Virus record (IMG/VR): IMGVR_UViG_3300022555_000045
Coordinates: 1-64,000 of that record
Source of the DNA: a virus
Lineage: Duplodnaviria > Caudoviricetes
Direction: 5' to 3' (one strand)
Length of the DNA stretch: 64,000 nt
Part shown: positions 10,728 to 27,039 of the stretch, one piece after another
Numbering within the stretch: position 1 is the first letter of the stretch
Layout: each line of letters begins with the position of its first letter
Program-made: the position numbers and the translations under genes
The notes under the pieces: generated by a model
Databases searched by the model: none
What the model saw: only the letters and a program-made list of their open reading frames with translations
What the model was told of the DNA's origin: nothing

Positions 10728-12974
10728 ATGGCGAAACCTAACGTTGTTCCAAACAAGTCGTTAAAAAAGGCTGACCTTGCTAACGTCATCAATACTTTAG
10801 GTTTCCCGCCGTCTTCTTATCAACAATCTGTTTTTGACTATTACCTCAACTCAGATTCTCCTAAAGTTAGTCCTTTTCTACTAATTAACGCGGTTGCTGG
10901 GTCGGCTAAGACCACCTCTATCCTACAAGCGGTTCAGTTTATCCCGAATCGGAAAGCTAGAACAAGTTTTCTAGCTTTCAATAATCACATTTCAAAGGAA
11001 ATCAAGAGCAAGCTTGATGAGTTTGGTATTTCTACTGTTTTCCCTGGACAATCAGGCTTGTCAGTTCAGACCTTTAACGCTATGGGGTTTAGATCAGTAT
11101 TATTAGTTCGGCCGGATACTACTTTGATACCTGAAAACAACACTAAAATTAGGGCTATTTTTCAACAGTTTAAGTCTCAACCGTTAGAAGAATCTAAAAA
11201 GGAAAAGTACAAGGAGTTGCAAGACTTCGTTATTGACTTAGTTAATCTAGCTCGTAACTTTGGCTTGGCTCCTAAAGATATTGACGGTTATACTTTACGC
11301 CCGGTAGAACTTGACACGATCAAGAACTTGAAGGCTATAGTAGAAGAGTATGACCTTCGTCCAGAGAACGACATTGATGTTGCTATAGCTGTTGCTAAAC
11401 GTAAAATTGTGGATGCCGCAATAGCTAAAGGTAAAGACCCTACCAAGGTTAAATTTGATCCTAAGACTTTGCCTACTCAGGCTGATCTTGACGCCATTAT
11501 GATCAAAGAACTTAAACTAGCACGTAGGGTACTCCGTTCTAGTTTAAGACAGTCTATCTTTGGTTATGTCAATCCACCTAAGCCAGATTGTCCTTATGAG
11601 GACGCTGGTAAAAAGTTGATTGACTTTACTGATCAAGTTTATCTTGTTGCCGTTGATCCTGCTACTAGGCTTCCACAGATTGATTACCTACTAGTTGATG
11701 AAGCACAAGATACTAACGCTATTCGGTTACGAATTATTGAGCGGTTGATTGAGAACAACCCCAATATTAGGATTACTTGTGTTGGGGACAAAAAACAGGC
11801 AATTTACGCGTGGTCAGGAGCAGATGATAACTCAATCGACACAATAAAGAGGACTTTGCAAAAATACGCACCTGTAACAGAGTTGACTTTGCCAATATCT
11901 TATAGGTGTCCTCAAGAGATAGTCAACCTAGCTAAACACTATGTACCGTACATTGAAGCGTCACCTGTTGCTGATATTGGTAAGGTAGATACTGTAACCA
12001 CGTACAACAAGTTTACGTTTATGCAGCCCGACACTGCTGTGTTGTGTAGGTTCAACGCACCACTTATAACTTTAGCTATGGAGCTATTAGCAAGACAAGT
12101 ACCTATACTTATAGTAGGCAGAGAAATCCATAAAGGGTTACTAAAGCTTGTTAGTAAGTCTAAGGCTAAGACAGTTAAAGAGTTGCGGGACACTTTACAG
12201 ATTATGTTGAGAGAGCCTAATCTCAAAGAAGGTTATGAAGATAAAATTCAATGTGTCATGGCAATCGTCTCCAATCTTAAACCTACCGATCCCACTGACC
12301 GGGTCGTTAACTTGATTGAGAGCGTGTTCTCAGACCGTAACAGTAAAAACGCAGTAAAGTTGTCGTCTATTCATCGGGTTAAGGGAATGGAGTTTAACAA
12401 CGTATTCATCTTAGACACTCCGTTTAATCCCATCCTGTTGAAGTCTAAACAAGAAGACAACCTTAAGTACGTCGCTCTGACTCGGACTAAGAAGTGGCTA
12501 CGCTTTATTAAACCTGATAGCTGGAAAGATTACGGCGTATTAGAGTCACCGGAACCTCGGTACCATTACGACATGGCTATTAGCGAACTTATCGCTAAGG
12601 ACCGTAAGCGCGAACTCAGTAAGAAGATTGCTAGTGGTACGAAAGCGGTCAAATCTGGAGTTGTATCTAAAGGTTTAACTAAGGGTATAGGTAAATTACC
12701 TACTAAAATTGACCCGGAGACTGGAGAGGTTTTAGAAGGTAATAACTACAGTAACTTATCAGGACAAGCTTTAGTTGACTTTGTAGACTCTTATAGGACT
12801 AAAGCCCGTATGGAGCCAGTACCTTCTATAGCGTCGAGGCTAGTTAAAACTCCGAAACCCGTAGAACCTGTGTCAGTCGGTTCGTTGCTCATATATCCGT
12901 CCACTACTTTTGCTGACGCTAACGATGATAATGCTAATAATGCTGACGAAGACGACGATGAAGACGGCAATTAA
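10728..12974 (+). CDS. UvrD/Rep-like SF1 helicase with acidic C-terminal tail
   Basis: AVAGSAKTT, LLVDEAQD, VGDKKQAIY, SYRCP, SIHRVKGMEF, YVALTR. Confidence 0.92.
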   Translation: MAKPNVVPNKSLKKADLANVINTLGFPPSSYQQSVFDYYLNSDSPKVSPFLLINAVAGSAKTTSILQAVQFIPNRKARTSFLAFNNHISKEIKSKLDEFGISTVFPGQSGLSVQTFNAMGFRSVLLVRPDTTLIPENNTKIRAIFQQFKSQPLEESKKEKYKELQDFVIDLVNLARNFGLAPKDIDGYTLRPVELDTIKNLKAIVEEYDLRPENDIDVAIAVAKRKIVDAAIAKGKDPTKVKFDPKTLPTQADLDAIMIKELKLARRVLRSSLRQSIFGYVNPPKPDCPYEDAGKKLIDFTDQVYLVAVDPATRLPQIDYLLVDEAQDTNAIRLRIIERLIENNPNIRITCVGDKKQAIYAWSGADDNSIDTIKRTLQKYAPVTELTLPISYRCPQEIVNLAKHYVPYIEASPVADIGKVDTVTTYNKFTFMQPDTAVLCRFNAPLITLAMELLARQVPILIVGREIHKGLLKLVSKSKAKTVKELRDTLQIMLREPNLKEGYEDKIQCVMAIVSNLKPTDPTDRVVNLIESVFSDRNSKNAVKLSSIHRVKGMEFNNVFILDTPFNPILLKSKQEDNLKYVALTRTKKWLRFIKPDSWKDYGVLESPEPRYHYDMAISELIAKDRKRELSKKIASGTKAVKSGVVSKGLTKGIGKLPTKIDPETGEVLEGNNYSNLSGQALVDFVDSYRTKARMEPVPSIASRLVKTPKPVEPVSVGSLLIYPSTTFADANDDNANNADEDDDEDGN

Positions 12975-13010
12975 GTAGAGTGGACGGACGCAATATTTGT
13001 ACGAACTGAC

Positions 13011-13045
13011 AAACCCTGTTGACCAGTTTAAGGTCAACAGGGTTT
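13011..13045 (+). terminator. 14-bp hairpin after the helicase
   Basis: AAACCCTGTTGACC / GGTCAACAGGGTTT. Confidence 0.7.
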
Positions 13046-13071
13046 TAGGATGTTTATAATTTTGCAAGACG

Positions 13072-13083
13072 AATCTTAATTTT
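13072..13083 (+). promoter_or_regulatory. AATCTTAATTTT motif upstream of terminase
   Basis: About 30 nt before the ATG at 13115. Confidence 0.55.
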
Positions 13084-13114
13084 TGACACCTGAGCTAATA
13101 AGGACTTTTAAACT

Positions 13115-16100
13115 ATGTCACGAATTTTTTTACCCAACAAAAAGCTAATTATTCCAGACGGTGTTAAGGTAACAAACTCCACAAGTAGTAATAACGTTGC
13201 TAAAGTTGTGAGTAAAGCCGATAAAGAAGCTGACGCCAAACGTAGGAAAGATGACTCGGAATCCCGTAAGACCGAAGCTAGGAAAAGTGAGCCTTTAGGT
13301 GAGGTAAAAATCAACAACAAGTACAAGCCCGCCAAGCCAGTTGTAGGAGTAGAGGGTAAATCTGAGAAGGTTAAGTCCGGTAAGTCGTCAGAGGGTAAGA
13401 AGATAGTGGCGGAAATTCTACCTCCGCTTCTTAAGCCTTCATCTATTGGACCCTCTAGTCCGGTTAGTTTAGGTGGGGTGGGGACGACAGGCTCGACCGG
13501 AAAGAAGGATAAGAAGTCGTGTTTGGGTTGCTCCAAGTTCATGACCTGTGTTGATATTAAAAAGGCGTTCAACTACTATTGCAACAAGTTTGAAGTTCGT
13601 GGATCATCTATTGATTTGGACTCTTTTGCTAAGCAGAACACTGTAGCAGAAGAAGCTACCGTTTCGTCTAAGGTTAACAAGCACGTTAAGCGTGACACTA
13701 CAGTTAAGAAGTACGAAGTTGATAACGTTGATTCTGATGTGGACCCTGGTGACTTTAACGTTCAGAAACTGATTAGGGAAGCCTCTTCGGATAGTCACAA
13801 TGTTGCTAAAGCTGGTGGCATAAAAATTGACGATAGAGATTTATCGTACGCTCCAAACTTTGTTTCTTTTCTAATTGATTCTTTCGGTGAAGTAGGTTAT
13901 GAGCCATGGGCTAAGCAAATCATGTTTGGTTCGATGCTTTTTGGAGATTACTGCTGGAGCCCTACCTGTTCAGACGCTAGATATGCCAAAAACATACCAG
14001 TAGGTGACACTGTAGACCAAGTTCTTGAAAGGATTACATTCCTAGAATGGGGAAAATGTCCAACCTGTGGAAAAACTAGACATGACTTCTGGAATGAGGG
14101 TAAACAGCACGATTACTATGAGTTTGTGGCACTCTTAGGACAGAGGTGCGGAAAAAGTAGTATAACTGCATTGATGTTCGCGTATCAGTTGCAACGTTTA
14201 ATAAAATTGGGAGTTCCTGCAAAAGTGTACCCTGGTGTGTTACCTAGTACACCATTGGTAGCTACTTTTGTTGCAGTGTCCTTCAAACAAGCTAAAGACG
14301 CTTTATACGAACCCTTCTTGGGTATGGTGGAGAGTAGTAGTTTTTACAAGGAATACCATAAGATTCTTGACTACTACGGAAATAAGCACGGGGAGCAACT
14401 ATATAAAGTTAGAGACACCTTTGTATGGTATTCCCCATCGAATTTAAGCCTTTTTCCCTCGACCACAAGCGGTAAGACTCTTCGTGGTTATACACGATGG
14501 GGAGCAGCCTGCTTGTCTGGAGATTCGTTAGTTTTGACAGATAAGGGTTTTATAGAAATTAAGAATAATCTTGTCGGGTTTACTACAAACACTACTACTA
14601 ACGAAATGAAAACAATAAGCAATTGGGCTTATACTGGTAAGAAAGAAGTAAAGCGTGTGACATTAGCTAATGGCTTATGGTTAAAAGTTACCGATGATCA
14701 TAAGATTCCTGTGTTGACTAAAACCTTGGACATTGAGACTAAACGTGTTGAAGATTTACAAGTAGGTGACTACGTTGGTGTAGCTTACAATACTCAAGTT
14801 TTTCCTAAAGTTAATCCTGAGTTTACGTTTAGTCATGCTTATCCAGTAAGGAAGTACGTTGAAATAATTAAGAAGGTTGGAGAACTAGGTACTTTTAGGC
14901 TTAGTGATTTAGGCATTTTAGGTAACACCTCTTCCGCTAGGAATACAGTGATTAAATTAGCTAAAGCTGGCATGGTGTATGTGGATCATAGAGTGGGTAG
15001 GTTTAGAGTCTATAAAATTACTTCAGAATTTACTATTGACAAAGCTATAGCCAGTCAAACGTCTGGTAAATTTAAACGTTATGCCATAACATTTCCTGCT
15101 ACTATGACTCCGGACCTAGCGGCGCTATTAGGGTGGTTTGTATCTGAAGGTACTTATAGTGAAATAGCTAGAGAGTTTATGATATGTAATACTGATAAAG
15201 TGGCAGCTGATCATATTGTAAACTCTGCTGAAAAAGTTTTTGGTGTTGCTCCTCGTATAAATTTAGATACGCGTGGAGGAAATTCTCCGTATAAAAGTAT
15301 ATGGAGGATATTTTTTGCCTACGAGAATACTAAAAATTTTCTACGCTACGTAGGACTAACTCCATCTCTATCAAAGACGAAGACTATTCCTTGGAGTGTG
15401 CTTACCTCTACTAAAGACTGCCAAAAAGCCTTCCTTCAAACCTTATTTGAAGGAGATGGTTGCTGTTGCACTGTTGACTGTAAAGTGTCTTATGCTACTA
15501 CTAGTAAAAAGTTAGCTTTACAGCTACAAATGATGTTGCTAAACTTTGGTATATATTCTAATCTTATAGTTTACGATGGAAGTAAACGCAGTGATAAGTA
15601 TAATATTTCATACCATATTGAGTTACCAGTTATTGAAGGTATGAAGTTTATAAAGCGTATAGGATTTCTAACAAAAAATAAAGCGTATCTTAAGGAAAGT
15701 ACCAGTAATAGGTATACTCACTTTAGGCTACCCTACATATCTTTTACGGGTAAGTATCCTGATAAGAGTGGTGCTTTTCAAAAGGTAAAGACTCACGTGT
15801 ACTCTATTGATTACGCTAACAGGAAGACTAAGAATAGAGGCTTAAACAAAGCAATGTTCGTACCTGGAATTCAGGACAAAATGGAGGCTTTGATTGATAA
15901 CCATACTATATGGCAACCTATTAAGTCTATCAAGAAGTTAAAACCTGCTGTTAAGACTTATGACATAACCGTTGATGATGCTACCCATAGTCTTGTTGCT
16001 CACGGTATGAGAATCAACAACTGCGACGAATTAGGACATCTTGCTGCTAAAGATAAAGGTGCAGTAAAGATGAACCCTGATTTAGTAGTAGACGCTTTAC

Positions 16101-17365
16101 GGCGCTCTTTGCTTACTGTAAGAGCAGGTGCTGATACGCTACATCGTAAAGGTAATTATGATGTACCTCATGTGTTGTTTGCAAACGTATCTTCTCCTAT
16201 GCATTTAACGGACAAAATCGTACGTTTGTACGAAGAATCTAAGAACTCTGAGTCGATGTTGGGATACCACTATTCCGTTTTTGAAGTAAACCCTCTTATC
16301 ACTGAGAAGGTGTTAGAAGCAGAACGTAGGTCTGACCCCGAAGGTTACAAGCGTGACTATTTAGCTATTCCTCCTCGTGCTACCCATGTATTCTTACCTT
16401 CTAAATCAGTATTGACTTCAGCTGTGGGTAAGCATAAGAATATTATAGCTTTAACACAGGAAACAGGTAAGTCTGCCGCAGGTTTACCGATTATACGAGC
16501 TAAGGCGAAAGTGTTAAAAAAGGACGCGGTTACTCCTCGTGTGCTTGCTATAGACGCGGGCCGGACAGATAACGCATTTGGAGGGTGTATCATGCACCTT
16601 AGGCAAACTACTGTAGGTAAAGATAAGGAAGGTAACGAGTTGATTGAGGAAATGCCTACAGTTGATGCCTTCTTTGAGATTGTACCTGAACCTAAGAAAC
16701 CTGTTAACTTCAATAATGTCTATGAAAAAGTCCTACGACCTATAATGATAGGACTTAACATAAAATATATTGTTGCTGATCGTTGGAACTCTGCAAAAAT
16801 TCTTGACGATTTAGAGGCCGAATTCGGGTGTGGGTGGTCGTTTTGGACGCTTCGATGGGAAAATTTTTTATTAGTAAAAAACTCCTTTATCAATAGTGAA
16901 GTTCTATTGCCTAAACCTGAAATTTCACTATCTGACGCTATGACTCTGAGTTCTAAAAATTACCCGTTTTCGATGATTGGAAAACCAGTTTCACACTTCA
17001 TGGTTGAGGCTATGACTGTGGAGGAGAGCATGGGTAAAACTGTCGAAAAAGGGGACAAACGGACAGACGACTTATTCCGTGCGTTCTGCCTAGCGTACTG
17101 TGCTCTGCACGATGAGGAAATACGTGACGAGTACCTATTCGGAGAAGAGGAGCCACCAGCCAAAGCTATAGACACAGGTAGTCTATGTTTCTATGGTTCC
17201 TACGGTGGCGGGGGCTCAGCACCTACTAGCAGAGGTGGTGGAATAGGGTCAGGTGCTACAGGTAACTTTTTCTCTGGTTCACTGTCTGGTGGGTCAGGTC
17301 ACAGTTCGGGTGGTGGTGCTTCTGGTGTAACAGGCAAAGTTTTCACTGGTGGTGACAAGAAGTAA
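13115..17365 (+). CDS. terL: terminase large subunit, intein-containing
   Basis: Walker A GQRCGKS; Walker B GAA|CDE split by the intein; nuclease motifs LAIDAG, ADRWNS, TDDLFRA. Confidence 0.9.
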   Translation: MSRIFLPNKKLIIPDGVKVTNSTSSNNVAKVVSKADKEADAKRRKDDSESRKTEARKSEPLGEVKINNKYKPAKPVVGVEGKSEKVKSGKSSEGKKIVAEILPPLLKPSSIGPSSPVSLGGVGTTGSTGKKDKKSCLGCSKFMTCVDIKKAFNYYCNKFEVRGSSIDLDSFAKQNTVAEEATVSSKVNKHVKRDTTVKKYEVDNVDSDVDPGDFNVQKLIREASSDSHNVAKAGGIKIDDRDLSYAPNFVSFLIDSFGEVGYEPWAKQIMFGSMLFGDYCWSPTCSDARYAKNIPVGDTVDQVLERITFLEWGKCPTCGKTRHDFWNEGKQHDYYEFVALLGQRCGKSSITALMFAYQLQRLIKLGVPAKVYPGVLPSTPLVATFVAVSFKQAKDALYEPFLGMVESSSFYKEYHKILDYYGNKHGEQLYKVRDTFVWYSPSNLSLFPSTTSGKTLRGYTRWGAACLSGDSLVLTDKGFIEIKNNLVGFTTNTTTNEMKTISNWAYTGKKEVKRVTLANGLWLKVTDDHKIPVLTKTLDIETKRVEDLQVGDYVGVAYNTQVFPKVNPEFTFSHAYPVRKYVEIIKKVGELGTFRLSDLGILGNTSSARNTVIKLAKAGMVYVDHRVGRFRVYKITSEFTIDKAIASQTSGKFKRYAITFPATMTPDLAALLGWFVSEGTYSEIAREFMICNTDKVAADHIVNSAEKVFGVAPRINLDTRGGNSPYKSIWRIFFAYENTKNFLRYVGLTPSLSKTKTIPWSVLTSTKDCQKAFLQTLFEGDGCCCTVDCKVSYATTSKKLALQLQMMLLNFGIYSNLIVYDGSKRSDKYNISYHIELPVIEGMKFIKRIGFLTKNKAYLKESTSNRYTHFRLPYISFTGKYPDKSGAFQKVKTHVYSIDYANRKTKNRGLNKAMFVPGIQDKMEALIDNHTIWQPIKSIKKLKPAVKTYDITVDDATHSLVAHGMRINNCDELGHLAAKDKGAVKMNPDLVVDALRRSLLTVRAGADTLHRKGNYDVPHVLFANVSSPMHLTDKIVRLYEESKNSESMLGYHYSVFEVNPLITEKVLEAERRSDPEGYKRDYLAIPPRATHVFLPSKSVLTSAVGKHKNIIALTQETGKSAAGLPIIRAKAKVLKKDAVTPRVLAIDAGRTDNAFGGCIMHLRQTTVGKDKEGNELIEEMPTVDAFFEIVPEPKKPVNFNNVYEKVLRPIMIGLNIKYIVADRWNSAKILDDLEAEFGCGWSFWTLRWENFLLVKNSFINSEVLLPKPEISLSDAMTLSSKNYPFSMIGKPVSHFMVEAMTVEESMGKTVEKGDKRTDDLFRAFCLAYCALHDEEIRDEYLFGEEEPPAKAIDTGSLCFYGSYGGGGSAPTSRGGGIGSGATGNFFSGSLSGGSGHSSGGGASGVTGKVFTGGDKK
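14510..16021 (+). mobile_element. 504-aa intein with LAGLIDADG endonuclease in TerL
   Basis: Starts CLSGDSLVLT, ends HGMRINN followed by +1 Cys; LLGWFVSEG and FLQTLFEGDG blocks. Confidence 0.92.
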
Positions 17366-17378
17366 CGGCACAATACAA

Positions 17379-17415
17379 GGGAGATTAGCTAGAAAAGAAC
17401 TCTAGCTAATCTCCC
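17379..17415 (+). terminator. 15-bp hairpin after terL
   Basis: GGGAGATTAGCTAGA / TCTAGCTAATCTCCC. Confidence 0.65.
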
Positions 17416-17416
17416 G

Positions 17417-17428
17417 ATTCTTAATTTT
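17417..17428 (+). promoter_or_regulatory. ATTCTTAATTTT motif variant upstream of 17454
   Basis: Immediately follows the hairpin. Confidence 0.45.
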
Positions 17429-17453
17429 AGAGATACAAGAATGGAAATCAAAA

Positions 17454-18200
17454 ATGAACTATACACAGGACTCCTCACAACTAGCTATTAGAGACCATCA
17501 AGCCTTAGACTACTTGTACGGTACAACGACTAGTTGCCTAATAGATTCAGCTAAGCTGCTGTTTAACAGGTTTAAGCAAGAATCCCACTTAATCAAAACT
17601 AATAGTTTAGTAGTGTCTGAGCATACACCTTTTGGCATTACGCTACATCTTAAGATTATATACCATGAGCCAATTACAAACTCAATAGCAGGCGTATATA
17701 ATCACGATACGCACACAATTACTATCTACTTCTCATGCTTTGATGTTCATGGGCATCTTGAGACGATTGAACACATTATATACGAACGCTTCAGTGATTT
17801 TCTACTTCTCGCCTTCCAAGACTTGGACTTAACAGAGAGCTTAGGTCCGTTATTAAAGTCGTTTGTAAAATTGGAAAGTAAACACCGTATAGACTACTTG
17901 GACTTCATTAGTCACCTTGCCGGTTACTGTAACACGTTACCCAAGTTGTTATTCGTAGAGATGCTAGGTGAGTCTTACCTTAAACCTACAGGTAACCACT
18001 CAGTTGCTAGTAAACTTCAAAAATTAGCCTATATAGAATCTGATGACTACATGAATGACTTTAGAAAAGAAGACTTAAGACAAGCTCACACTTGGCAAAT
18101 AGTCAAGGCTCAACTACCAGAACGGTTAGTAACCTTTATGTTCCGTCTACTTTTTGAGTTTTTAGAACGGCAGGCCACAGAATTGGACAATTACCTTTAA
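17454..18200 (+). CDS. hypothetical protein, possible degenerate zincin-like paralog of 40086..40949
   Basis: AGVYNHDTHTITI vs LGEYNYKTKTIEL; no HExxH. Confidence 0.7.
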   Translation: MNYTQDSSQLAIRDHQALDYLYGTTTSCLIDSAKLLFNRFKQESHLIKTNSLVVSEHTPFGITLHLKIIYHEPITNSIAGVYNHDTHTITIYFSCFDVHGHLETIEHIIYERFSDFLLLAFQDLDLTESLGPLLKSFVKLESKHRIDYLDFISHLAGYCNTLPKLLFVEMLGESYLKPTGNHSVASKLQKLAYIESDDYMNDFRKEDLRQAHTWQIVKAQLPERLVTFMFRLLFEFLERQATELDNYL

Positions 18201-18267
18201 CATTTGTGTTGACTACCGTAGTAAAAATAGTTTAAAAATAGCAAAAAAGAATAAACAGCTTCTGGGA

Positions 18268-18287
18268 GAATCTTAATTTTGTTTGTA
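18268..18287 (+). promoter_or_regulatory. GAATCTTAATTTTGTTTGTA motif, identical to 54313-54332
   Basis: Exact 20-nt match between two distant intergenic regions. Confidence 0.65.
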
Positions 18288-18309
18288 AGTCCCATAGGGA
18301 GATTTAAAA

Positions 18310-18531
18310 ATGACCGAAGTAACTTCAGCGTTTCCTCAGCGTAGGAATCCTTTATTCAACAGTTCGGCTGCTGCCGCTGCCCAGAACATCATAGATTCAA
18401 CTAAACCTTTCCTTACTGCACCAAAGAGTCCTGTCACTGGTAAACTGATGGTTCGGTCTAGCATTGGTGACATTCCTGTTTGGTGGTGCCCTACTAGCCG
18501 TATTGTTCTACCTGTAGCCAAAGAAGAATAA
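18310..18531 (+). CDS. small hypothetical (probable virion) protein
   Basis: 73-aa ORF with AGGGAG RBS. Confidence 0.7.
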   Translation: MTEVTSAFPQRRNPLFNSSAAAAAQNIIDSTKPFLTAPKSPVTGKLMVRSSIGDIPVWWCPTSRIVLPVAKEE

Positions 18532-18561
18532 CCCGTTAACCAAGTAAGAGAGCAACGAACC

Positions 18562-18753
18562 ATGCCAAGAATAATCAATTCTGACGATTGCACTAGCTGT
18601 GGTGCCTGTGAAGCAGAATGTCCTACAGCGGCTATTTCTGCTGGGGACACCTCAAGTGTAATTGACACTGGTAAGTGTAATGACTGCCCTGACCGGGATG
18701 ACCTATCCCGTTGTGAGGAAGCTTGTCCAGCCGACTGTATCCACCGGGTTTAA
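18562..18753 (+). CDS. 2[4Fe-4S] ferredoxin
   Basis: CTSCGACEAECP and CNDC-x8-CEEACP; the second cluster has the YfhL/Alvin-type insertion. Confidence 0.92.
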   Translation: MPRIINSDDCTSCGACEAECPTAAISAGDTSSVIDTGKCNDCPDRDDLSRCEEACPADCIHRV

Positions 18754-18786
18754 CTCAATAACTAATCTAACAAGAAAGTAATAATA

Positions 18787-19005
18787 ATGCCTACTATTCT
18801 TCATATTGAAGCCGGAACTGAAGACTGGGATCCTACTCCAGAAGACCTAGAAGGTCTGACCAAGCTGTTCTTGGAAGCCTCTAAAGAGCCTGACATTGCT
18901 GTAGTAGCCACTAGGGAGGGAGTTAAGGTTTCTGTTCTAACCGTACCTACAGTTGACTCAGTTAATGTTTCTGAAATCAAGTTGTATCACAACACAAAGG
19001 GCTAA
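18787..19005 (+). CDS. stand-alone copy of a portal sub-domain
   Basis: 22 of 44 aligned residues identical to the portal segment encoded at 20218-20349 (hand alignment). Confidence 0.75.
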   Translation: MPTILHIEAGTEDWDPTPEDLEGLTKLFLEASKEPDIAVVATREGVKVSVLTVPTVDSVNVSEIKLYHNTKG

Positions 19006-19012
19006 TCCTCTC

Positions 19013-19234
19013 ATGACTCAGAAGATTCTCCACATTAAAGTCGGTTCAGCGTTTAAGGCTTTGGACCAAGCTACCATCCTAGACCTGTTCAACAAGTTTG
19101 TTGCTGACATGACCAATTCTGAAGTCGCTGTTCAGAGTGGATTAACCTCTGAGATTGTTGACCTTAACGAACTTATGTACCTCTCCCCAACCTCCGTCAT
19201 GGCTATTTTAACCATTGACACCGAGTCCGAGTAA
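19013..19234 (+). CDS. second, more diverged portal sub-domain-like small protein
   Basis: KILHIKVGSAF...VAVQSGL vs portal GILHIEVGDSF...IATRSGV. Start moved to the ATG at 19013. Confidence 0.6.
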   Translation: MTQKILHIKVGSAFKALDQATILDLFNKFVADMTNSEVAVQSGLTSEIVDLNELMYLSPTSVMAILTIDTESE

Positions 19235-19242
19235 CCTAACTA

Positions 19243-19274
19243 GGTAGGTCTAGAGTCGAAACTCTAGACCTACC
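19243..19274 (+). terminator. 14-bp hairpin with CGAA loop
   Basis: GGTAGGTCTAGAGT / ACTCTAGACCTACC. Confidence 0.65.
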
Positions 19275-19335
19275 GTCGTGTTCTGAATTAAAAATAACAA
19301 TCTAATCTTTTGTTCTTTTTGTATAAGAGGGTATT

Positions 19336-22300
19336 ATGATGCTTAAGGGTCTTGGACAGTATCAAGTTACTTCAACCAATAATGGAGTTAAGATGACCCC
19401 ACGTGGAGGCTTAACTACCTCTGAACGTGGACTAGGTTCATCTATGTCCATGACCCGTAGGGAAGTTACTGCTGCAGCAACTGGGACAAGTAACTGTGGG
19501 CCAGGAGCTTCTGGTGGGGGTGGGGGGTTTGGAATTTCTGGTGGGGGTGTTAACGCCAATTATATTCGTTCCGTAGTTGAGGATTTTATTCCTCTTGGAA
19601 ATGCTGACGCTTACCGCCGAATCTACCGCGATATTTATTACCATCAACCGACTGCTGGGTCTGCTGTTGATCTGCTATCAACACTACCTTGGTCAGATTT
19701 CGTTTTAACAGGACTTCCGTCCGCTGATCTTCTTAAGCAATATGCAAAGTCCATTGAAAACCTTAAGATCAAAACTCTTCTCCCTGAGATGAGCATTGAT
19801 TATCTGGTAATGGGCACTTTTATTGGTGTACTCAATTTTGATGCTGCTAGTAAAGTTTTCGTCTCTATTGCACCACAAGATGTTGAATATTGTACTATTA
19901 ACCCGGTAGGTGTGTACGGTGAGGACCCTATCATTGACCTTCGTCTACCTCCTGAGCTAATGGAAATGCTTGACAAGTCTAAAAAGGACCCTCGTTACGA
20001 TTCTGTTAAAGCTAAGCTTCCAGGGTTCCTAATTAACAATGTTAAGAAAAACGGAGTTATTAAGCTAAACCCGTCTAACGTTCTTTATTTACCTCGTAGG
20101 ACTTTTTCCACGAGCACAGTAGGTGTGTCTTGTTATCGGCGTTTGGTCGGTCTTTATCTGTTGGAAAAGGCGCTTATGCGCGGATCGATAGAAGCAAGCT
20201 ATCGTCGGCAACGAGGTATCCTGCACATTGAAGTCGGTGATAGTTTTGATTGGCAGCCTACTCGTGAAGAGCTAAGCACTGTTACTCAGATGGTAATTAA
20301 CGCAGATCTAGATCCAACAGGTGCGGTTATTGCAACTCGCTCTGGGGTCCAGTTCAATGAAGTACGTTGTTTAGGCGGTAACACTTATGTGCATACCGAA
20401 AACGGGTTGATAAAGATTAAAGACTTAGTACCACACAACCCCAAGAAGATGATCGAAGGCACTATGTTACCTTTAGACCTTCAAGTTAAAGGTATGACTG
20501 GTAACTTCGTTTTAGCGACTCATTGGCACTACCAAGGCGTCAAACCTGTTAATAACTACTATACTGATTCCAATATAAAATTGACTTGTACCGAGGAGCA
20601 TAAGTTTTTAACTGTAGGAGAGTACGGTCAACTTGAATCTGCCAAGATAAAGGATATTGTTAAAGATAATCGTTGGCTATGTATTGATAAGGCGGGGTTA
20701 GACTACAATGAGGTTGGAAAAGACTTGGAACTGAACTTACGTTTTCCAGATATTAAAGCTAGGTTTTTGACTAGAACTAACACTGATATAACTTTACCAA
20801 AGCGTATGACTCCGCAACTGGCCTATATAATTGGAATTCTCATCAGTGAAGGTTACATTAACAAGCGCGGAGCGTATGTCAATAATACAGACTTAGAGCT
20901 AATTGCTGCTTACAGTGAAGCTATTTTAGATACTTTTGGTATGGAAACTAAAATAGGCGAGGGTTCTCCTATAGGAGAAGAAGTTGTAATATTAGGTAGA
21001 CAGCAGACGCGTAAAAAGAAAATCTATCAATGTCGCTTGCATGGTGTTATAGTAGTAGATATTCTAAAACAGTTAGGATTGGTTAACACCGCTGAAGTTA
21101 ACAATCGTGAGAAGTCTCCTTCTTACTATAAGAAGGTTCCTTGGAGTATAATGCAAGCAGACCGTGAATGCAAGATAGCCTTTTTAGCAGCTTACATAGA
21201 AGGTGACGGTTGTATTGGAAAGTCTCCAAACAAGACAAGTGGGACTAAAACGGTCGATATTCGCATAGCTAGTAGGTCGGTGTATACGCTAAATTCAATA
21301 AAAATATTGTTACAAAGTCTTGGGTTTTTATCTAATACCTGTTACGAACCTAGGTATGAGCTAAAATTAACAAGAGCTGAAGGTTCTAGGTTGTATAACT
21401 TAATGTATAAGTATTTGGTACTTCCTTATAAGAAACACCATGTTAAATGTGATGATGTTTCTATGGTAAGGTACGGAATACCAGCTAGCGTATTCGTTTC
21501 GGTGTTAAAAGAGCGTAAAATAAAGAGTGCTATAGGTGGGGTGTGGTTTAAAAACGACGAAGGCTCCTCTGTCTTTGTAGAAGGCCCTGTTGGTAATATT
21601 TTTAAACACTACACTGCTGTAAAAGAAGCTATATGCTTACGCTATGAGCGGTTAGACACGGGTGACTATACTAAAGAATTATCTATTATTAGGCAGGTTA
21701 GTCCAAAACTCTACTTCAATATACTAAAGCTTGCCTCTCTCAAATACAAGTTTGAGAAGGTTGTTAAAGTAACTAAAGCCAAAGATCAACCAACTTATGA
21801 TCTTACAATAAATTCTGACTCTGCTCCACTATTTCTTATTGCTGGTGGCGTAGTAACTCATAACTCCGGCTCGGATTTCTGGAAAATCAGCGATATGAAC
21901 GAGTTTTTAAATAGTTCATATTTGCGAGCATTAGGGTTAAGCGAGTCTTTACTCTCTGCGGAATCCTCCATTTCGACCTCTGAAGCTTCCATAAGTTCGT
22001 TCCTTGAGAGCCAAAGGGCGTACCGCGATTTGGTAGTACGTAAAGTCTTCACTAACCGGATATTCCCAGCTATTGCCGTATCGAACTCATTCCTACGTAC
22101 TAAAGCGGAAGAACGTAAGGAAGTAGCAGGATCATTAAATCATAATCCAGTAATGATTGACGGTAGGTACCGTGAAGTACTGGCCTCAAACGGTGAGAAG
22201 TCCTACGAGGTAACGTGCGACGGTGAGATTAAATCTTATCAAAATGAAGACTTGACTCAGTATTATATGCCGCGTATACAATGGCATAAACACCTTAAGC

Positions 22301-22797
22301 CTGAAGGTGACCGTGATTATCTGGACATGTTGAACGGCTTAGAGGATAAAGGTCTACCTATCCCACTTCGTATGTTAGCCGCTGCTGGTGGTGTGTCGTT
22401 AACAGAAGTAATGACTTCACTAGACGAAGATGTGAGGATACGCCAGCAAGTTGACAAGTATTTCAAAGCTCGGCCTAAAACCCCCAAAGAACAAGCCGAC
22501 GCGGCACAAGCAGGTGGTTCCGGTGGTGGTATGGGTGGTGGGTTAGGTGCTCTAGCCTCACTAGTTGAGCCCCCAGGGAACTTCAAGAAGAACCGTAACT
22601 TCGAATCAATTGAGATGCGTGACCCTGACACTGGTAAAGTCCTCAGTAAAAAAGGCCGCAAAGTTCAAGAAGAGAAGTTAATCAAAAAGGCAGCTCTAGT
22701 CCTATCTAACGTAGCTCGTAAAGAGAACCACAAGATTAAAACTGACGAAACTATCAAACCTGTCGGTGAAGGTGTCTACGGCGTTAGCGAGTCTTAG
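19336..22797 (+). CDS. portal protein, intein-containing
   Basis: About 650-aa extein with helical portal-like segments (YRRIYRDIY...SAVDLLSTLP; LRALGLSESLL), located between terL and the head genes. Confidence 0.75.
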   Translation: MMLKGLGQYQVTSTNNGVKMTPRGGLTTSERGLGSSMSMTRREVTAAATGTSNCGPGASGGGGGFGISGGGVNANYIRSVVEDFIPLGNADAYRRIYRDIYYHQPTAGSAVDLLSTLPWSDFVLTGLPSADLLKQYAKSIENLKIKTLLPEMSIDYLVMGTFIGVLNFDAASKVFVSIAPQDVEYCTINPVGVYGEDPIIDLRLPPELMEMLDKSKKDPRYDSVKAKLPGFLINNVKKNGVIKLNPSNVLYLPRRTFSTSTVGVSCYRRLVGLYLLEKALMRGSIEASYRRQRGILHIEVGDSFDWQPTREELSTVTQMVINADLDPTGAVIATRSGVQFNEVRCLGGNTYVHTENGLIKIKDLVPHNPKKMIEGTMLPLDLQVKGMTGNFVLATHWHYQGVKPVNNYYTDSNIKLTCTEEHKFLTVGEYGQLESAKIKDIVKDNRWLCIDKAGLDYNEVGKDLELNLRFPDIKARFLTRTNTDITLPKRMTPQLAYIIGILISEGYINKRGAYVNNTDLELIAAYSEAILDTFGMETKIGEGSPIGEEVVILGRQQTRKKKIYQCRLHGVIVVDILKQLGLVNTAEVNNREKSPSYYKKVPWSIMQADRECKIAFLAAYIEGDGCIGKSPNKTSGTKTVDIRIASRSVYTLNSIKILLQSLGFLSNTCYEPRYELKLTRAEGSRLYNLMYKYLVLPYKKHHVKCDDVSMVRYGIPASVFVSVLKERKIKSAIGGVWFKNDEGSSVFVEGPVGNIFKHYTAVKEAICLRYERLDTGDYTKELSIIRQVSPKLYFNILKLASLKYKFEKVVKVTKAKDQPTYDLTINSDSAPLFLIAGGVVTHNSGSDFWKISDMNEFLNSSYLRALGLSESLLSAESSISTSEASISSFLESQRAYRDLVVRKVFTNRIFPAIAVSNSFLRTKAEERKEVAGSLNHNPVMIDGRYREVLASNGEKSYEVTCDGEIKSYQNEDLTQYYMPRIQWHKHLKPEGDRDYLDMLNGLEDKGLPIPLRMLAAAGGVSLTEVMTSLDEDVRIRQQVDKYFKARPKTPKEQADAAQAGGSGGGMGGGLGALASLVEPPGNFKKNRNFESIEMRDPDTGKVLSKKGRKVQEEKLIKKAALVLSNVARKENHKIKTDETIKPVGEGVYGVSES
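20368..21864 (+). mobile_element. 499-aa intein with LAGLIDADG endonuclease in the portal
   Basis: Starts CLGGNTYVHT, ends GVVTHN followed by +1 Ser; IIGILISEG and FLAAYIEGDG blocks. Confidence 0.93.
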
Positions 22798-22808
22798 ACC
22801 GTAGTAAA

Positions 22809-22842
22809 AGGTGGTGGGGTTGCTAGTTAAACCCTACCACCT
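22809..22842 (+). terminator. hairpin after portal
   Basis: AGGTGGTGGGGTT / AACCCTACCACCT. Confidence 0.6.
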
Positions 22843-22874
22843 GAATACAGTTCACACCTAAAAGGTTTATTATT

Positions 22875-23687
22875 ATGTCCATTTTAGATGAGCTTGACCG
22901 CTATCTCGCTACTGCTAACGCAACCACGTTCCGTTGGAATTTTTCAGCCATAAATGCTATTAAGGTAAATAAGGCACCTCCTCCTAATCAATACTATGTA
23001 ATAATTGCTACATATGCTAGTGATAACTTTTATTATCTTGTAATAAAGTTAGAATTACTACCGATAAAGGATAAACCTTACAAAAATTTTGGTTACTTGT
23101 TGTCAGTAAAACCTGAAGGCTGTCCTATGATTGATATTAACGATGCTTTTACTCCTGAAGGTTTAGCTTTAAAGAATAAATACATGCCTCATTCAGGAGA
23201 TAGAGAGCAGGTTAAAGACACTTTAGTAAGTGTAGTAAAGCCTACTTTGGAGTTGGGTGGTAATCCGCCTCACGTAGTTCGTGAACCAATGACCGAAGCA
23301 AAACTTAATAGTGAGCGGTATCAAAAAATTACTGATGAGTTTTTGAAATTAGGGTATTCTTTTGAAAAAGTTATAGGCGATGACGGAAAACTCTACTTTC
23401 ATCATAAGTTAAAAGGATTCTCCGAGGCATCTCTTTCTTCAGAAGTTGAGGCTACTTATATTGAAGGAAGCACCAGTTTTGCTGAGCTTACTATTATGCG
23501 GAATCTCAATAACTACCTGTCTGAACACGGCGAGACTCTACGTAAACTTAATAATGATCTGTTTAACCACTATATGGATCATGCTGAAATTGTAAGGCTA
23601 CCTGACGGGAACATAGGACTATTAAGCTCTATATCCGGTGAGATTTTAGAAGTCCTTACAAACGCGCCAATAGTCCCTCCTACTTAA
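22875..23687 (+). CDS. hypothetical protein, possible internal head protein
   Basis: 270 aa; short N-terminal propeptide-like segment LDRYLATANA. Confidence 0.7.
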   Translation: MSILDELDRYLATANATTFRWNFSAINAIKVNKAPPPNQYYVIIATYASDNFYYLVIKLELLPIKDKPYKNFGYLLSVKPEGCPMIDINDAFTPEGLALKNKYMPHSGDREQVKDTLVSVVKPTLELGGNPPHVVREPMTEAKLNSERYQKITDEFLKLGYSFEKVIGDDGKLYFHHKLKGFSEASLSSEVEATYIEGSTSFAELTIMRNLNNYLSEHGETLRKLNNDLFNHYMDHAEIVRLPDGNIGLLSSISGEILEVLTNAPIVPPT

Positions 23688-23703
23688 TAAGGAACAATAA
23701 CCG

Positions 23704-24018
23704 ATGTCTTCTAACATTATCATTGCTACAGACGAAACTTTTGAATCAATCGTTACCTCTGGCAACTACTTAGTTGACTTCTACTCACAACAGTGCCAAC
23801 CTTGTAAGCAAATGGATCGTATATTACAGTCTTTGACAATTTCAAACCTAACAGTTGTCAAGGTTGACGTAAGTGCTAATCCAATCATAACGTCTAAACA
23901 TCACGTGCGTGGTGTACCTACCTTTATTCTATATAAAGACGGTATTATTCAAGACACTAAAAGTGGTTCTATCCCTCAGAGCCAGTTTATAAAGTGGTTA
24001 GAGGAATCTTTAGTTTAG
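23704..24018 (+). CDS. thioredoxin
   Basis: YLVDFYSQQCQPCK...VRGVPTF; 104 aa. Confidence 0.92.
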   Translation: MSSNIIIATDETFESIVTSGNYLVDFYSQQCQPCKQMDRILQSLTISNLTVVKVDVSANPIITSKHHVRGVPTFILYKDGIIQDTKSGSIPQSQFIKWLEESLV

Positions 24019-24043
24019 GAATTTTAAACCAGGACACCAAGCA

Positions 24044-25159
24044 ATGACGTTCACATTAGAGGACTTCACCAATATCAATGCTAAACTAAAACAGATTCGT
24101 GCCTGCAATCAGCAGTTACTAGATGATGCTACCGTTACAGAGTCTGCCAACGAGGACCAAGGCGTAAAGGGTCTGTTTGGTTTAACTAAGAAAGCTAAAC
24201 CTCCGGCTCACCATACCGAACATCACGTTTCACACTCTAAGCCTAAACTAGTTAACGCCCCTACACCACACTTTGATAAAGATGCTAGGTACGTTCAGCA
24301 CCCTGAAGGTAAACTTCAACGGTACGGTTATCATGTTTACATTCATCCGGAAACTGATGGTACTCACAAAGTAACGGCGGGACGTAATAATACCTTAATG
24401 GCTAACGGTTTGTCGTTAGAGGACGCCAAGAAAGCTGCTGAACACGTTGTACGTCACATTGACCGCACGTCTGGTGTAGAGGTCAAGAAAGTAGCGGCGG
24501 CAACAATCAACGAGTACATTGACTCACCTGTCCTTACTACTATCATTGAGTCTAACACTGTACCTCAAGAAGTTAAAGCCTCTGGTGAAATTTACCTAGA
24601 AAAAGAACAAGTACCACCCCAACTTCGTGGGTCGTACACAGGTTCTAAGTTCAAGGTTAAAGTTACTGACTCAATGAGTATTCCTATTGACGCGGGTCTG
24701 TGGTCCTCCGGTAGCAAAGATACTTACTTGATTATTAGGTTAGCTGACGGTAAAGCAATTTCTCCTCCCGGACAGTCGTCATCTCCGTTTTCCGGTACTC
24801 GCCAAGAGGTCCCTGTCAAATTGGAACCTGGAATTGCTGTAGTTGAGCATACTATCTTCCGTGGCAAAGACTTAGGTTTAACTTTCTACGTTCATCCCAG
24901 CGATGTTGCCAAGTTACTTCCCGACAACTCAACTAACGATCTATCAGATGATGAAAAGTTAGTGCTACACTGTATTAAGTCATTTACCTCTAGTTACCGT
25001 AAACAAGAGTTTTCTAGACTTTCCAACAAGAGTGAGAAGGTCTGGAACAACCTACTTGACGACTTGAAAGCCAAAGGTCTAGTTGCTAAAAACGGTTCCA
25101 TCACTATGTCTGGTAAAAACGCTATTATTAACTACCATCCACCGCTACAATACACCTGA
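24044..25159 (+). CDS. multi-segment probable internal head protein
   Basis: N-terminus TLEDFTNINAKLKQIRA shared with 25984..27039; segments separated by V-x-A motifs. Confidence 0.75.
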   Translation: MTFTLEDFTNINAKLKQIRACNQQLLDDATVTESANEDQGVKGLFGLTKKAKPPAHHTEHHVSHSKPKLVNAPTPHFDKDARYVQHPEGKLQRYGYHVYIHPETDGTHKVTAGRNNTLMANGLSLEDAKKAAEHVVRHIDRTSGVEVKKVAAATINEYIDSPVLTTIIESNTVPQEVKASGEIYLEKEQVPPQLRGSYTGSKFKVKVTDSMSIPIDAGLWSSGSKDTYLIIRLADGKAISPPGQSSSPFSGTRQEVPVKLEPGIAVVEHTIFRGKDLGLTFYVHPSDVAKLLPDNSTNDLSDDEKLVLHCIKSFTSSYRKQEFSRLSNKSEKVWNNLLDDLKAKGLVAKNGSITMSGKNAIINYHPPLQYT

Positions 25160-25194
25160 GCTTTAAGTCTTCTTCAAACAGAGGTACGTTAAAA

Positions 25195-25575
25195 ATGGTC
25201 CATTTTGTCAAACAGACTAAACTGTACAATCCACCGGATGCTCCAGGAGGGTTGAAACACGGTAATTGTCAACGGGCAGCTATAGCTTGTTTGTTAGACT
25301 TGGCTATTGATGACATACCGCCGTTTGAAGAAGCAAAAACTACAGCTGAGTTCTGGGAACAAGTTGAAGAGTGGTTGTTTGATCGACGGCTACAAATAAA
25401 ATACTACTTGCCACATAAACCGCCTGATGGTTATTCTATTGCTTGTGGGAAAAGTTCCCGTGGAGTTAACCACGCTGTTATAGCCTTGGATGGTAATGTA
25501 ATTTGGGATACTCATCCCAGTGATGAAGGTTTGTTGAGCATTATTCGCTACGAGGCGATTGTTCCTATTGAGTAG
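25195..25575 (+). CDS. hypothetical protein with papain-like Cys-His-Asp pattern
   Basis: NCQRAAIACLL...NHAVIA...IWDTHP. Confidence 0.55.
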   Translation: MVHFVKQTKLYNPPDAPGGLKHGNCQRAAIACLLDLAIDDIPPFEEAKTTAEFWEQVEEWLFDRRLQIKYYLPHKPPDGYSIACGKSSRGVNHAVIALDGNVIWDTHPSDEGLLSIIRYEAIVPIE

Positions 25576-25585
25576 GTCCTAAACT

Positions 25586-25891
25586 GTGAGTAACGCTTTT
25601 TATCACAAAGGTTTAACCGTGGAATGTTACCTTAATTTAGTTAAACCTTTAAGAAAATCTTGGCCTAATGTGTTTTACTCTCCTATAGAGTTTATTGATT
25701 CGATAACTGGACTGCGGTTAAGACTTATCAACATACCTGAAGCCGTTTTAGACTATAGTCATTATGAGCCAACGGTTAATCTATTAACCCTCTATCATAA
25801 CTATGAACCTATGATAGAAAAGCGTAGACTAACTCGAGGTAAAATTCTTATGATAGAACGACTCATTAGAGAACACTTGCAAATCAGTTAG
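25586..25891 (+). CDS. hypothetical protein
   Basis: 101-aa ORF packed in the operon. Confidence 0.55.
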   Translation: MSNAFYHKGLTVECYLNLVKPLRKSWPNVFYSPIEFIDSITGLRLRLINIPEAVLDYSHYEPTVNLLTLYHNYEPMIEKRRLTRGKILMIERLIREHLQIS

Positions 25892-25983
25892 GTCCTAGAT
25901 TATGATCAAAGACATGACAATAATCATATTGTTATCAGGATTGTTCCGCCTATCATATTGTCTGTTTGGTTAGGAGATATATT

Positions 25984-27039
25984 GTGACTACTACGTTAGA
26001 AGATTTTCACCGAATTAACTCTGCTTTGAAAGAAATACGTGCTAGCAATATACAACAGCGACTAGTTAACTTACACCAACGTCGGACTGGTTGCGAGATT
26101 GATACTTGTGATGGTCAACTTTGTGGTGTAGTTGAATCGTACCAACTTCGTTCATCTACTCAGGACTCTATTAACAAATACGATCTAAAACGGCTAACCA
26201 AAGCGTTCTTAAACCATTCAGAGCTTAGTCAGTTTAAAGATCATCCAGACTGCCTTAAGATTGAAGAAGTTGAACCTGGCTATATTGATCTAAAGCTAAC
26301 TAACTTTCCAGGATTAAAAACCAACGTTTTGCACCAGAGGCTCTTTCGTACTCTAGAGCTACCTAATATCAAACTAACTCACGGGCATATTTCATCAGGC
26401 GGTCCAGAGGGTATAGTTGTCCGTTACGGCTACACCTTCTTGAATGATATGTTAGACGAACCGGTTACGGCCAACACCAAGGATGGTCCCGGAGAACACT
26501 TTACCAAAACTGAAGCCTACAAAGAAGCCTATAAATCTCAAATAGGCCGTTCCTGGAACTCAACCGAAGGTAAGAAGACTATTACTGATGTTACGGTAAT
26601 TGAAGGTAAGCCTAGGTTAGTAGTTTCTGTGGAAGGCTCTAGGATTAAGACATTCTATCCACCAGAAGAAATTGAACGTACTATTCTAGTGGACGAAAAC
26701 TGGTACTCTCACGATATTAAATCTAAGCAAGCTAAACTTGAACAAGACTCATTGACTAAACAAGCTAAGGCTAAGAAACAAAACCTCAACGGTTTCATCA
26801 CTAATATGCCTGCTATTAAGCAGCGTAAGGTGGAAGAGGTTTTAGACACATTGGTTCGGTATAAGGGTGTACCGATTACCCGCCGTGAGTTGATTGAGCG
26901 TAAAGTTAAGGAAGGTTGGACTATAGAACAGCACAAAACTGGACGCCGTTTCAATAGCCCTGACGGCTATTTCCAGGACGAGAAAATGCTCACAAAGACT
27001 GGCATGGATTATGCCGAGTTTCTGTTGAATCACAGGTAA
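25984..27039 (+). CDS. probable internal head protein; C-terminal half paralogous to 27045..27602
   Basis: GTG start at 25984 behind AGGAG; TLEDFHRINSALKEIRA N-terminus. Confidence 0.75.
   Translation: MTTTLEDFHRINSALKEIRASNIQQRLVNLHQRRTGCEIDTCDGQLCGVVESYQLRSSTQDSINKYDLKRLTKAFLNHSELSQFKDHPDCLKIEEVEPGYIDLKLTNFPGLKTNVLHQRLFRTLELPNIKLTHGHISSGGPEGIVVRYGYTFLNDMLDEPVTANTKDGPGEHFTKTEAYKEAYKSQIGRSWNSTEGKKTITDVTVIEGKPRLVVSVEGSRIKTFYPPEEIERTILVDENWYSHDIKSKQAKLEQDSLTKQAKAKKQNLNGFITNMPAIKQRKVEEVLDTLVRYKGVPITRRELIERKVKEGWTIEQHKTGRRFNSPDGYFQDEKMLTKTGMDYAEFLLNHR

Follow-up and report, generated by a model that had tools for sequence, protein, structure and literature searches.

A stand-alone portal clip domain, with a putative degenerate second copy, encoded beside the portal gene of a Lu11/PaBG-type phage

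The clip of a phage portal is a strand-helix-strand module of approximately 50 residues, which is set between the two stem helices, protrudes from the capsid and serves as the docking site of the large terminase and later of the neck. In T4 gp20 it comprises residues 279-358 with three strands and a helix, forms the attachment site of terminase and neck, and contributes by its strands the only main-chain bonds between the subunits of the ring (PMC4493910). The clip helix of the P23-45 portal spans residues 263-275 (PMC7234808); the clip domain limits used here were taken from these two studies. Furthermore, the immune sensors SpbK and Avs4 contact the portal clip (PMC12847820). Here, we study a window of 64,000 nucleotides, positions 1 to 64,000 of the IMG/VR record IMGVR_UViG_3300022555_000045, a 74-kb phage contig with an estimated completeness of 33%. 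On its plus strand, two small genes, mini1 (18787..19005, 72 aa) and mini2 (19013..19234, 73 aa), precede the portal gene (19336..22797, plus strand), which encodes a precursor of 1153 aa. It is near certain that mini1 is a stand-alone paralogue of the portal clip domain; for mini2 this is less sure.

Compared with the clip domains of T4 gp20 and SPbeta YonE (residues 270-325), mini1 reveals the same strand-loop-helix-strand layout at about the same size. In contrast to these domains, however, the minis are not set between stem helices, and they lack wing, stem, and crown. Likewise, measured against a full portal protein of phrog_16240, both consist of the clip only, and the true portal is the neighbouring gene. 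Where a portal chain runs into the channel loop and a stem helix, the stand-alone proteins continue with either a short beta-rich tail or another unit. At both junctions, they do not conserve the residues specific to portals. The clip domain itself is textbook knowledge; new is its independent and widespread stand-alone architecture, which is listed in the databases as 'unknown function', 'hypothetical protein' or, wrongly, 'portal protein'.

A first-pass annotation of the window had taken mini1 for a copy of a portal sub-domain, and pairwise BLASTP bears this out. Residues 4-49 of mini1 align with portal residues 295-341 (20218..20358, plus strand), with 22 of 47 positions identical (47%; 45.4 bits, E 3e-11). 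When the whole 74-kb record of the phage was searched in six frames, matches appeared at two places only, mini1 and this portal segment. The gene is a complete open reading frame (ORF) with start and stop and with other genes on both sides. It encodes one complete clip unit, composed of a strand, a W-x-P-T loop, a helix, and a second strand, to which the short beta-rich tail is appended. In PHROGs, mini1 matches both the portal family phrog_16240 (1.3e-7) and phrog_11049 (2.9e-5, profile positions 100-164 of 182), and positions 277-322 are the only part of the portal hidden Markov model (HMM) that it covers. The core residues H, G, W, P, T, D-L, F, A, V, T-R, and G-V are present; the D and the G of the D-P-x-G loop are missing, the position of this G being taken by Ile.

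Two HMMs separate mini1 from the portal next to it. Against a model of 105 stand-alone units, from which the window sequences were excluded, mini1 scores 77 bits, compared with 58 bits against a model of portal clips, and for the clip of the window's own portal the preference is reversed (65.6 and 76.7 bits, respectively). Since mini1 fits the stand-alone model better and the portal clip does the opposite, mini1 is not a fresh copy of the neighbouring portal. Neither Pfam nor NCBIfam scans gave a match for mini1 or mini2, and no portal was found by searching PDB sequences with the single sequence or a profile. Word-index protein searches recovered no protein of similar length other than the query and no longer one, and the ESM Atlas contributed weak leads only, its own model having a pLDDT of 0.45.

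The portal itself is well defined by PHROGs, tblastn, and the predicted fold of a homologue. It matches phrog_16240 with an E value of 2.8e-116, and phrog_11049 as well. A tblastn search with its N-extein retrieves the portals of 95 phage records, among them PaBG, Lu11, NCTB, Rhizobium RHEph12, Erwinia Alexandra-like, and Dickeya phages; consequently, the phage is a relative of the Lu11/PaBG jumbo group. A related-locus search with the same N-extein returned nothing. For an intein-free portal homologue of 675 aa (L021), a model was computed with AlphaFold2 (AF2) and 15 aligned portals. Its pLDDT is moderate (57.7) and ranges from 42 to 59 within the copied unit itself. The model consists of a helix (304-324), the copied unit (325-376, with a helix at 342-355), a second helix (384-398), a loop, and a long helix (412-450). 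Because stem helix, insert, stem helix, tunnel loop, and long helix represent the canonical portal layout, the copied unit is identified as the clip. As a whole, the model resembles the portals of G20c, HFTV1, T4 (gp20), and lambda, with E values down to 5e-8.

mini1 was likewise modelled by AF2, using 35 family sequences. The model (pLDDT 77.5) shows strands at residues 3-9 and 46-52 and a helix at 18-32. In Foldseek, its first nine matches are portals with E values that are not significant (0.4 at best); the HFTV1 portal rows reach a probability of up to 0.94, TM scores of 0.57-0.59 and an rmsd of 2.7 Å. A Foldseek-independent comparison with 48,161 chains places nine chains of phage portal, neck, or connector structures at the top, matched in mid-chain ranges with Z scores of 3.3-5.4. 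One such match covers residues 240-313 of the P23-45 portal and contains its clip helix, and the best local fit is to HFTV1 residues 241-288 (rmsd 2.2 Å over 47 residues, Z 4.0). Taken together and read with the published domain limits, sequence homology, the topology of the portal model, and these structural matches place the copied unit in the portal clip, which the first-pass annotation had considered probable from position. Thus, mini1 is a conserved, independently encoded clip domain, folded according to the AF2 model.

The same annotation had placed the end of the copied segment six codons before the portal intein, and this is correct. The LAGLIDADG intein (20368..21864, plus strand; Pfam LAGLIDADG_3 and Intein_splicing) starts at Cys345 (20368) and is inserted at the clip/stem junction (...NEVR/C ... 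HN/SGSDFWK, slashes marking the insertion), where intein-free homologues read ...R-x-GGDFWK. Among the 43 portals contained in the best 150 of 704 clusters of the family search described below, 13 representatives exceed 750 aa and have large insertions. Most of these are located at portal-HMM position ~326, which is the clip end and the site used here, or at ~355-361, and P0092 combines the two. The channel-loop/stem region of this portal family would thus be flanked by two recurrent intein hot spots.

To assess the extent of the family, a profile of stand-alone units was compared with 1.84 billion representative proteins. The search gave 704 clusters at E<=1e-3 and 172 at E<=1e-10; the counts given in the following refer to the best 150 of the 704. 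Besides the 43 portals, these contain 102 stand-alone proteins, of which 73 have one unit and 29 have two. All of the latter 102 are shorter than 300 aa and match portal-HMM positions ~274-326 only, and 25 of the 73 one-unit proteins are mini-like, with at most 100 aa and the unit at the N-terminus. Although the 102 clusters share less than 50% mutual identity, they keep the same core. A column comparison shows that stand-alone units and portal clips share the residues that define the fold (H, G, W-x-P-T, E-L, F, A, G, V, T-R, V). Most positions that are conserved in portals only belong to the stem junctions, and a few, the D-P of the loop among them, fall within the unit; these positions are relaxed in the stand-alone set. 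Two high-ranking 'multi-repeat' matches, P0024 (2239 aa) and P0076 (1403 aa), proved to be low-complexity or repetitive sequences with no real unit and were discarded as false positives.

Further members, including a single-unit protein of 80 aa, were retrieved from IMG/VR by a degenerate DNA pattern. A frequent architecture among the two-unit proteins (P0003, P0012, P0020, P0023, P0025) is a full unit preceded by a half unit, which is limited to the strand, the W-x-P-T loop, and the helix. Pfam scans of longer members revealed no informative fused domain, and solely sub-threshold hits to WYL_2, nSTAND3, and DUF1653. Most of the aligned stand-alone members (27 of 35) match phrog_11049, with a best E value of 1.6e-36. 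This entry of 'unknown function' has a profile of about 182 positions derived from longer members such as Lu11 gp133, and its annotation holds no link to the portal clip; compared with it, mini1 is a bare single unit. mini1 and, with less certainty, mini2 thus belong to a large, patchy, and fast-evolving family in jumbo phages with a Lu11/PaBG-type portal.

Cultured phages contribute three homologues found by tblastn: Lu11 gp133 (YP_006382663.1, 196 aa), Motura gp019 (YP_009903608.1, 189 aa), and BcepSaruman gp209 (YP_009904142.1, 154 aa, L003:6001-6465). Two of these three contain two tandem units. They are stand-alone clip proteins like mini1 and originate from jumbo phages of the same portal family. 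In contrast to mini1, they have extra N-terminal domains or a second unit and are encoded far from the portal; identity over the unit amounts to 32-37%. The two-unit BcepSaruman gp209 carries the label 'portal protein' in RefSeq (the same gene occurs in BcepSauron), although the real portal of 652 aa is encoded approximately 32 kb away. This name is an annotation error, which could spread to other records. The first-pass annotation had known of no described free clip paralogs. Literature searches indeed found no description of free clip-domain proteins or portal-fragment decoys, yet the family is already present in PHROGs and, under the wrong name, in RefSeq.

The same annotation had called mini2 a weaker second copy, and the support for this is marginal. 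Pairwise BLASTP against the portal gives 14 of 44 identical positions at E 0.023, and the comparison with mini1 is not significant (E 0.27). In PHROGs, mini2 has no match and stays below the threshold of phrog_11049. On the other hand, a family HMM built without window sequences ranks it third among 789 six-frame window ORFs (12 bits, E 0.0046), behind mini1 and the portal, and BLASTP against the family members P0136 and P0123 gives E values of about 1e-4 (8e-5 for P0136, in a set of 150 sequences). In the family alignment, mini2 spans the whole unit and retains the I-L-H-I-x-V-G strand and the conserved Phe. A three-residue deletion removes W-x-P, and the invariant W-x-P-T loop, the T-R pair, and other invariant positions are lost. 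Its start lies 8 nt past the stop of mini1 in a different frame, and reading of the DNA revealed no clear Shine-Dalgarno sequence upstream. A frameshift fusion of both genes is conceivable, although the DNA shows no evident slippery site and gene calling treats the two separately. Judged from its sequence, mini2 would be a degenerate second copy of the clip unit, and either a decaying one or a diverged partner of mini1, similar to the fused two-unit relatives.

These features of mini2 raise the question of whether the minis are functionless leftovers, that is, recent partial duplications of the portal gene, perhaps generated as recombination by-products at the intein homing site. The losses in mini2, its lack of a clear ribosome-binding site, and the end of the copied segment near the intein would fit such an origin. 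However, mini1 keeps most of the invariant core and is closer to the stand-alone family than to portal clips, its AF2 model reaches a pLDDT of 77.5, and the same core recurs in all 102 divergent stand-alone clusters. Moreover, family members are encoded at a great distance from the portal gene and in phages with portals that lack an intein. The closeness of copied segment and intein is therefore a coincidence, and an origin as by-product of intein homing was rejected. For mini1, we regard a leftover as highly improbable, and the idea of non-conserved, decaying duplicates, which the first-pass annotation had named as the case against its own reading, does not hold. For mini2 the prospect of a leftover is better, and this copy may well be decaying.

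A different picture from that of the window emerges when the distribution over phage genomes is considered. Among 94 phage records with this portal family, a second matched place was found in only five (Lu11, Motura, BcepSaruman, BcepSauron, and BCSR5); most phages of this portal type, among them PaBG, the Erwinia and Dickeya phages, RSL1, and NCTB, lack a stand-alone member. Large IMG/VR contigs contain portal and stand-alone gene in four of eight cases (G001, G002, G003, and G005); the other four have the portal only, each with a portal reading frame of 687 aa. The genomic position was inspected in seven relatives, namely Lu11, Motura, BcepSaruman, and the four IMG/VR contigs with both genes. 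In all seven, tens of kilobases separate the stand-alone gene from the portal. Adjacency of the two is thus a peculiarity of this window. Of the two features that the first-pass annotation had named for checking, conservation was confirmed (102 stand-alone clusters among the best 150), and linkage to the portal was not supported.

The stand-alone genes mostly reside amid genes of replication and nucleotide metabolism rather than in the head module. Neighbours are a primase and a Holliday-junction resolvase in Lu11, a peptidase, ThyA, and GroES in Motura, GroES and thioredoxin in BcepSaruman, GroES in G002, a DnaB-like helicase, HNH, and DUF4406 in G001, and a dUTPase on one metagenome contig. 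GroES/Cpn10 adjoins the clip gene or is at most two genes away in Motura (L002:7389-7664), BcepSaruman (L003:7158-7439), and G002 (L057:1752-2033, minus strand). Because these three genomes share one portal clade, the synteny counts as one observation, and it may be inherited rather than a functional link.

Branch lengths were compared in a tree built from 17 clip units: terminal branches measure 0.38-1.63 for stand-alone units and 0-0.43 for the clips of the portals in these same genomes. Beyond this, the tree gives no resolution, and it does not reject a single origin for the stand-alone units (p-AU 0.14). Stand-alone units score better with the portal clips of their own clade than under random pairing (permutation p 0.0175). 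The unit of BcepSaruman has the ...DPLGGW... signature of Motura-clade portals, and the best scores of mini1 are obtained with its own portal and that of G005.

With respect to function, the minis would act as soluble mimics of the portal clip, binding a partner that normally recognises it and competing for this partner with the assembled portal. The clip is known to be bound by the large terminase, by proteins of the neck, by adjacent portal subunits by way of the inter-subunit strands (PMC4493910), and by host immune proteins. Two directions can be distinguished. The stand-alone clips may have a role in conflict, either as a decoy for host defence that senses the portal clip or by interference with the packaging of a competitor. 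Alternatively, they may modulate head assembly and packaging of their own phage by binding the large terminase TerL or the neck and thereby setting the timing of docking, or by strand-pairing with unassembled portal clips, which would chaperone or limit the ring.

Modulation of the phage's own packaging is a possible but rather doubtful explanation. It is encouraged by the clip being the docking site of TerL and neck, with strands that provide the main-chain inter-subunit bonds of the T4 ring (PMC4493910), and by the conservation of strand and T-R residues in the stand-alone family. Against it, most phages with the same portal family manage without a stand-alone clip, which therefore is not a core morphogenetic factor. 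Likewise, the gene is unlinked to portal or terL in each of the seven inspected relatives, and its rate of evolution far exceeds that of the portal clip. Paralogues of head proteins are frequent in jumbo phages, and an extra portal- or neck-associated protein that joins the portal vertex via the clip fold is conceivable as a minor virion component. Its clip-like strands could extend the clip sheet, as may be deduced from the T4 structure (PMC4493910). With a patchy distribution and mostly non-structural neighbours, however, we consider a virion component improbable.

Patchiness, fast evolution, frequent tandem duplication, and non-structural neighbours make an accessory role in conflict somewhat likelier than a role in the phage's own packaging, and we tentatively favour the former over packaging or ring assembly. 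A decoy would also explain why the copies track the portal clip of their own clade and at the same time evolve fast. Phage proteins that counter defence by competitive binding are likewise small, fast-evolving, and patchy, a comparison that extends to the manner of working only. By analogy with SpbK and Avs4, a free clip could in principle fill the sensor site without the clustering that activates SpbK. Taken furthest, free clips might be a widespread weapon of jumbo phages: monomeric or dimeric copies of the domain that the portal exposes most, occupying SpbK- or Avs4-like receptors, or the terminase of a competitor or satellite, without offering the 12-fold platform that activation or packaging would need; at present we hold this to be possible at best.

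Several observations weigh against a role in conflict. In this window, the minis sit between terL and the portal, where a packaging or assembly factor would be expected, and the association of the clip gene with phage GroES in three phages, albeit of one clade, could point to morphogenesis. The conserved strand residues, which form inter-subunit sheets in portals, fit co-assembly with the portal equally well, and the resemblance to own-clade portals could be plain shared descent. Literature searches found no anti-defence protein that mimics a portal fragment. Finally, structural Z scores of at most 5.4 are too low by themselves, such that the fold assignment derives mainly from sequence homology.

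The locus has the following further features, all on the plus strand. The terL gene, which contains an intein (13115-17365), is followed by a 15-bp stem-loop (17379..17415; -26.1 kcal/mol, z -8.37 versus shuffles). A perfect 14-bp stem-loop directly 3' of mini2 (19243..19274; -25 kcal/mol, z -6.25 versus shuffles) stands between the mini genes and the portal gene. Both hairpins bracket the block 17454-19234, which comprises an ORF of 248 aa 3' of the terL hairpin, a possible ORF of 73 aa, a 4Fe-4S ferredoxin gene immediately upstream of mini1 (18562..18753; Pfam Fer4, 2.3e-10), mini1, and mini2. The motif ATAAC(T)AATCTAA occurs at 18758-18770 and 19294-19306, upstream of the starts of mini1 and portal and nowhere else in the window; it could be a promoter element, though two instances prove nothing. 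In a comparison with phage NCTB, no counterpart of the 248-aa ORF was found. NCTB has, between its post-terL gene and the portal, an unannotated ORF of 70 aa with two C-x-x-C pairs (zinc-ribbon-like; L004:4945-5157). The spacer between terL and portal is a variable cargo site in the Lu11/PaBG-type phage group.

The exact mini1 protein is present on 31 contigs, the longest of 254 kb, and 23 of the mini1-bearing contigs were read. Positions 10787-27005 of the window (16.2 kb) are base-identical on three fetched contigs from three unrelated metagenome projects, gene calls for both minis exist on further contigs of this phage, and the 90% protein clusters contain no variants. The phage is clonal and has been sampled widely across metagenomes.

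Of all parts of the portal, only the clip is touched by terminase, neck, and at least two host immune sensors alike. Our findings reveal a large and conserved family of free clips that has so far been concealed behind the labels 'unknown function', 'hypothetical protein', or, wrongly, 'portal protein', and correct an annotation error that is spreading through RefSeq. Free clips offer direct experimental access to the partners of the clip and to the timing of their binding, and the cultured members Lu11 gp133, BcepSaruman/BcepSauron gp209, and Motura gp019 make this question testable at the bench. Should free clips control the docking of terminase or the assembly of the ring, they would represent a new class of jumbo-phage packaging regulator. 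If they act as decoys, this would be a new principle of counter-defence and the first instance of a fragment of a virion protein serving as molecular decoy.

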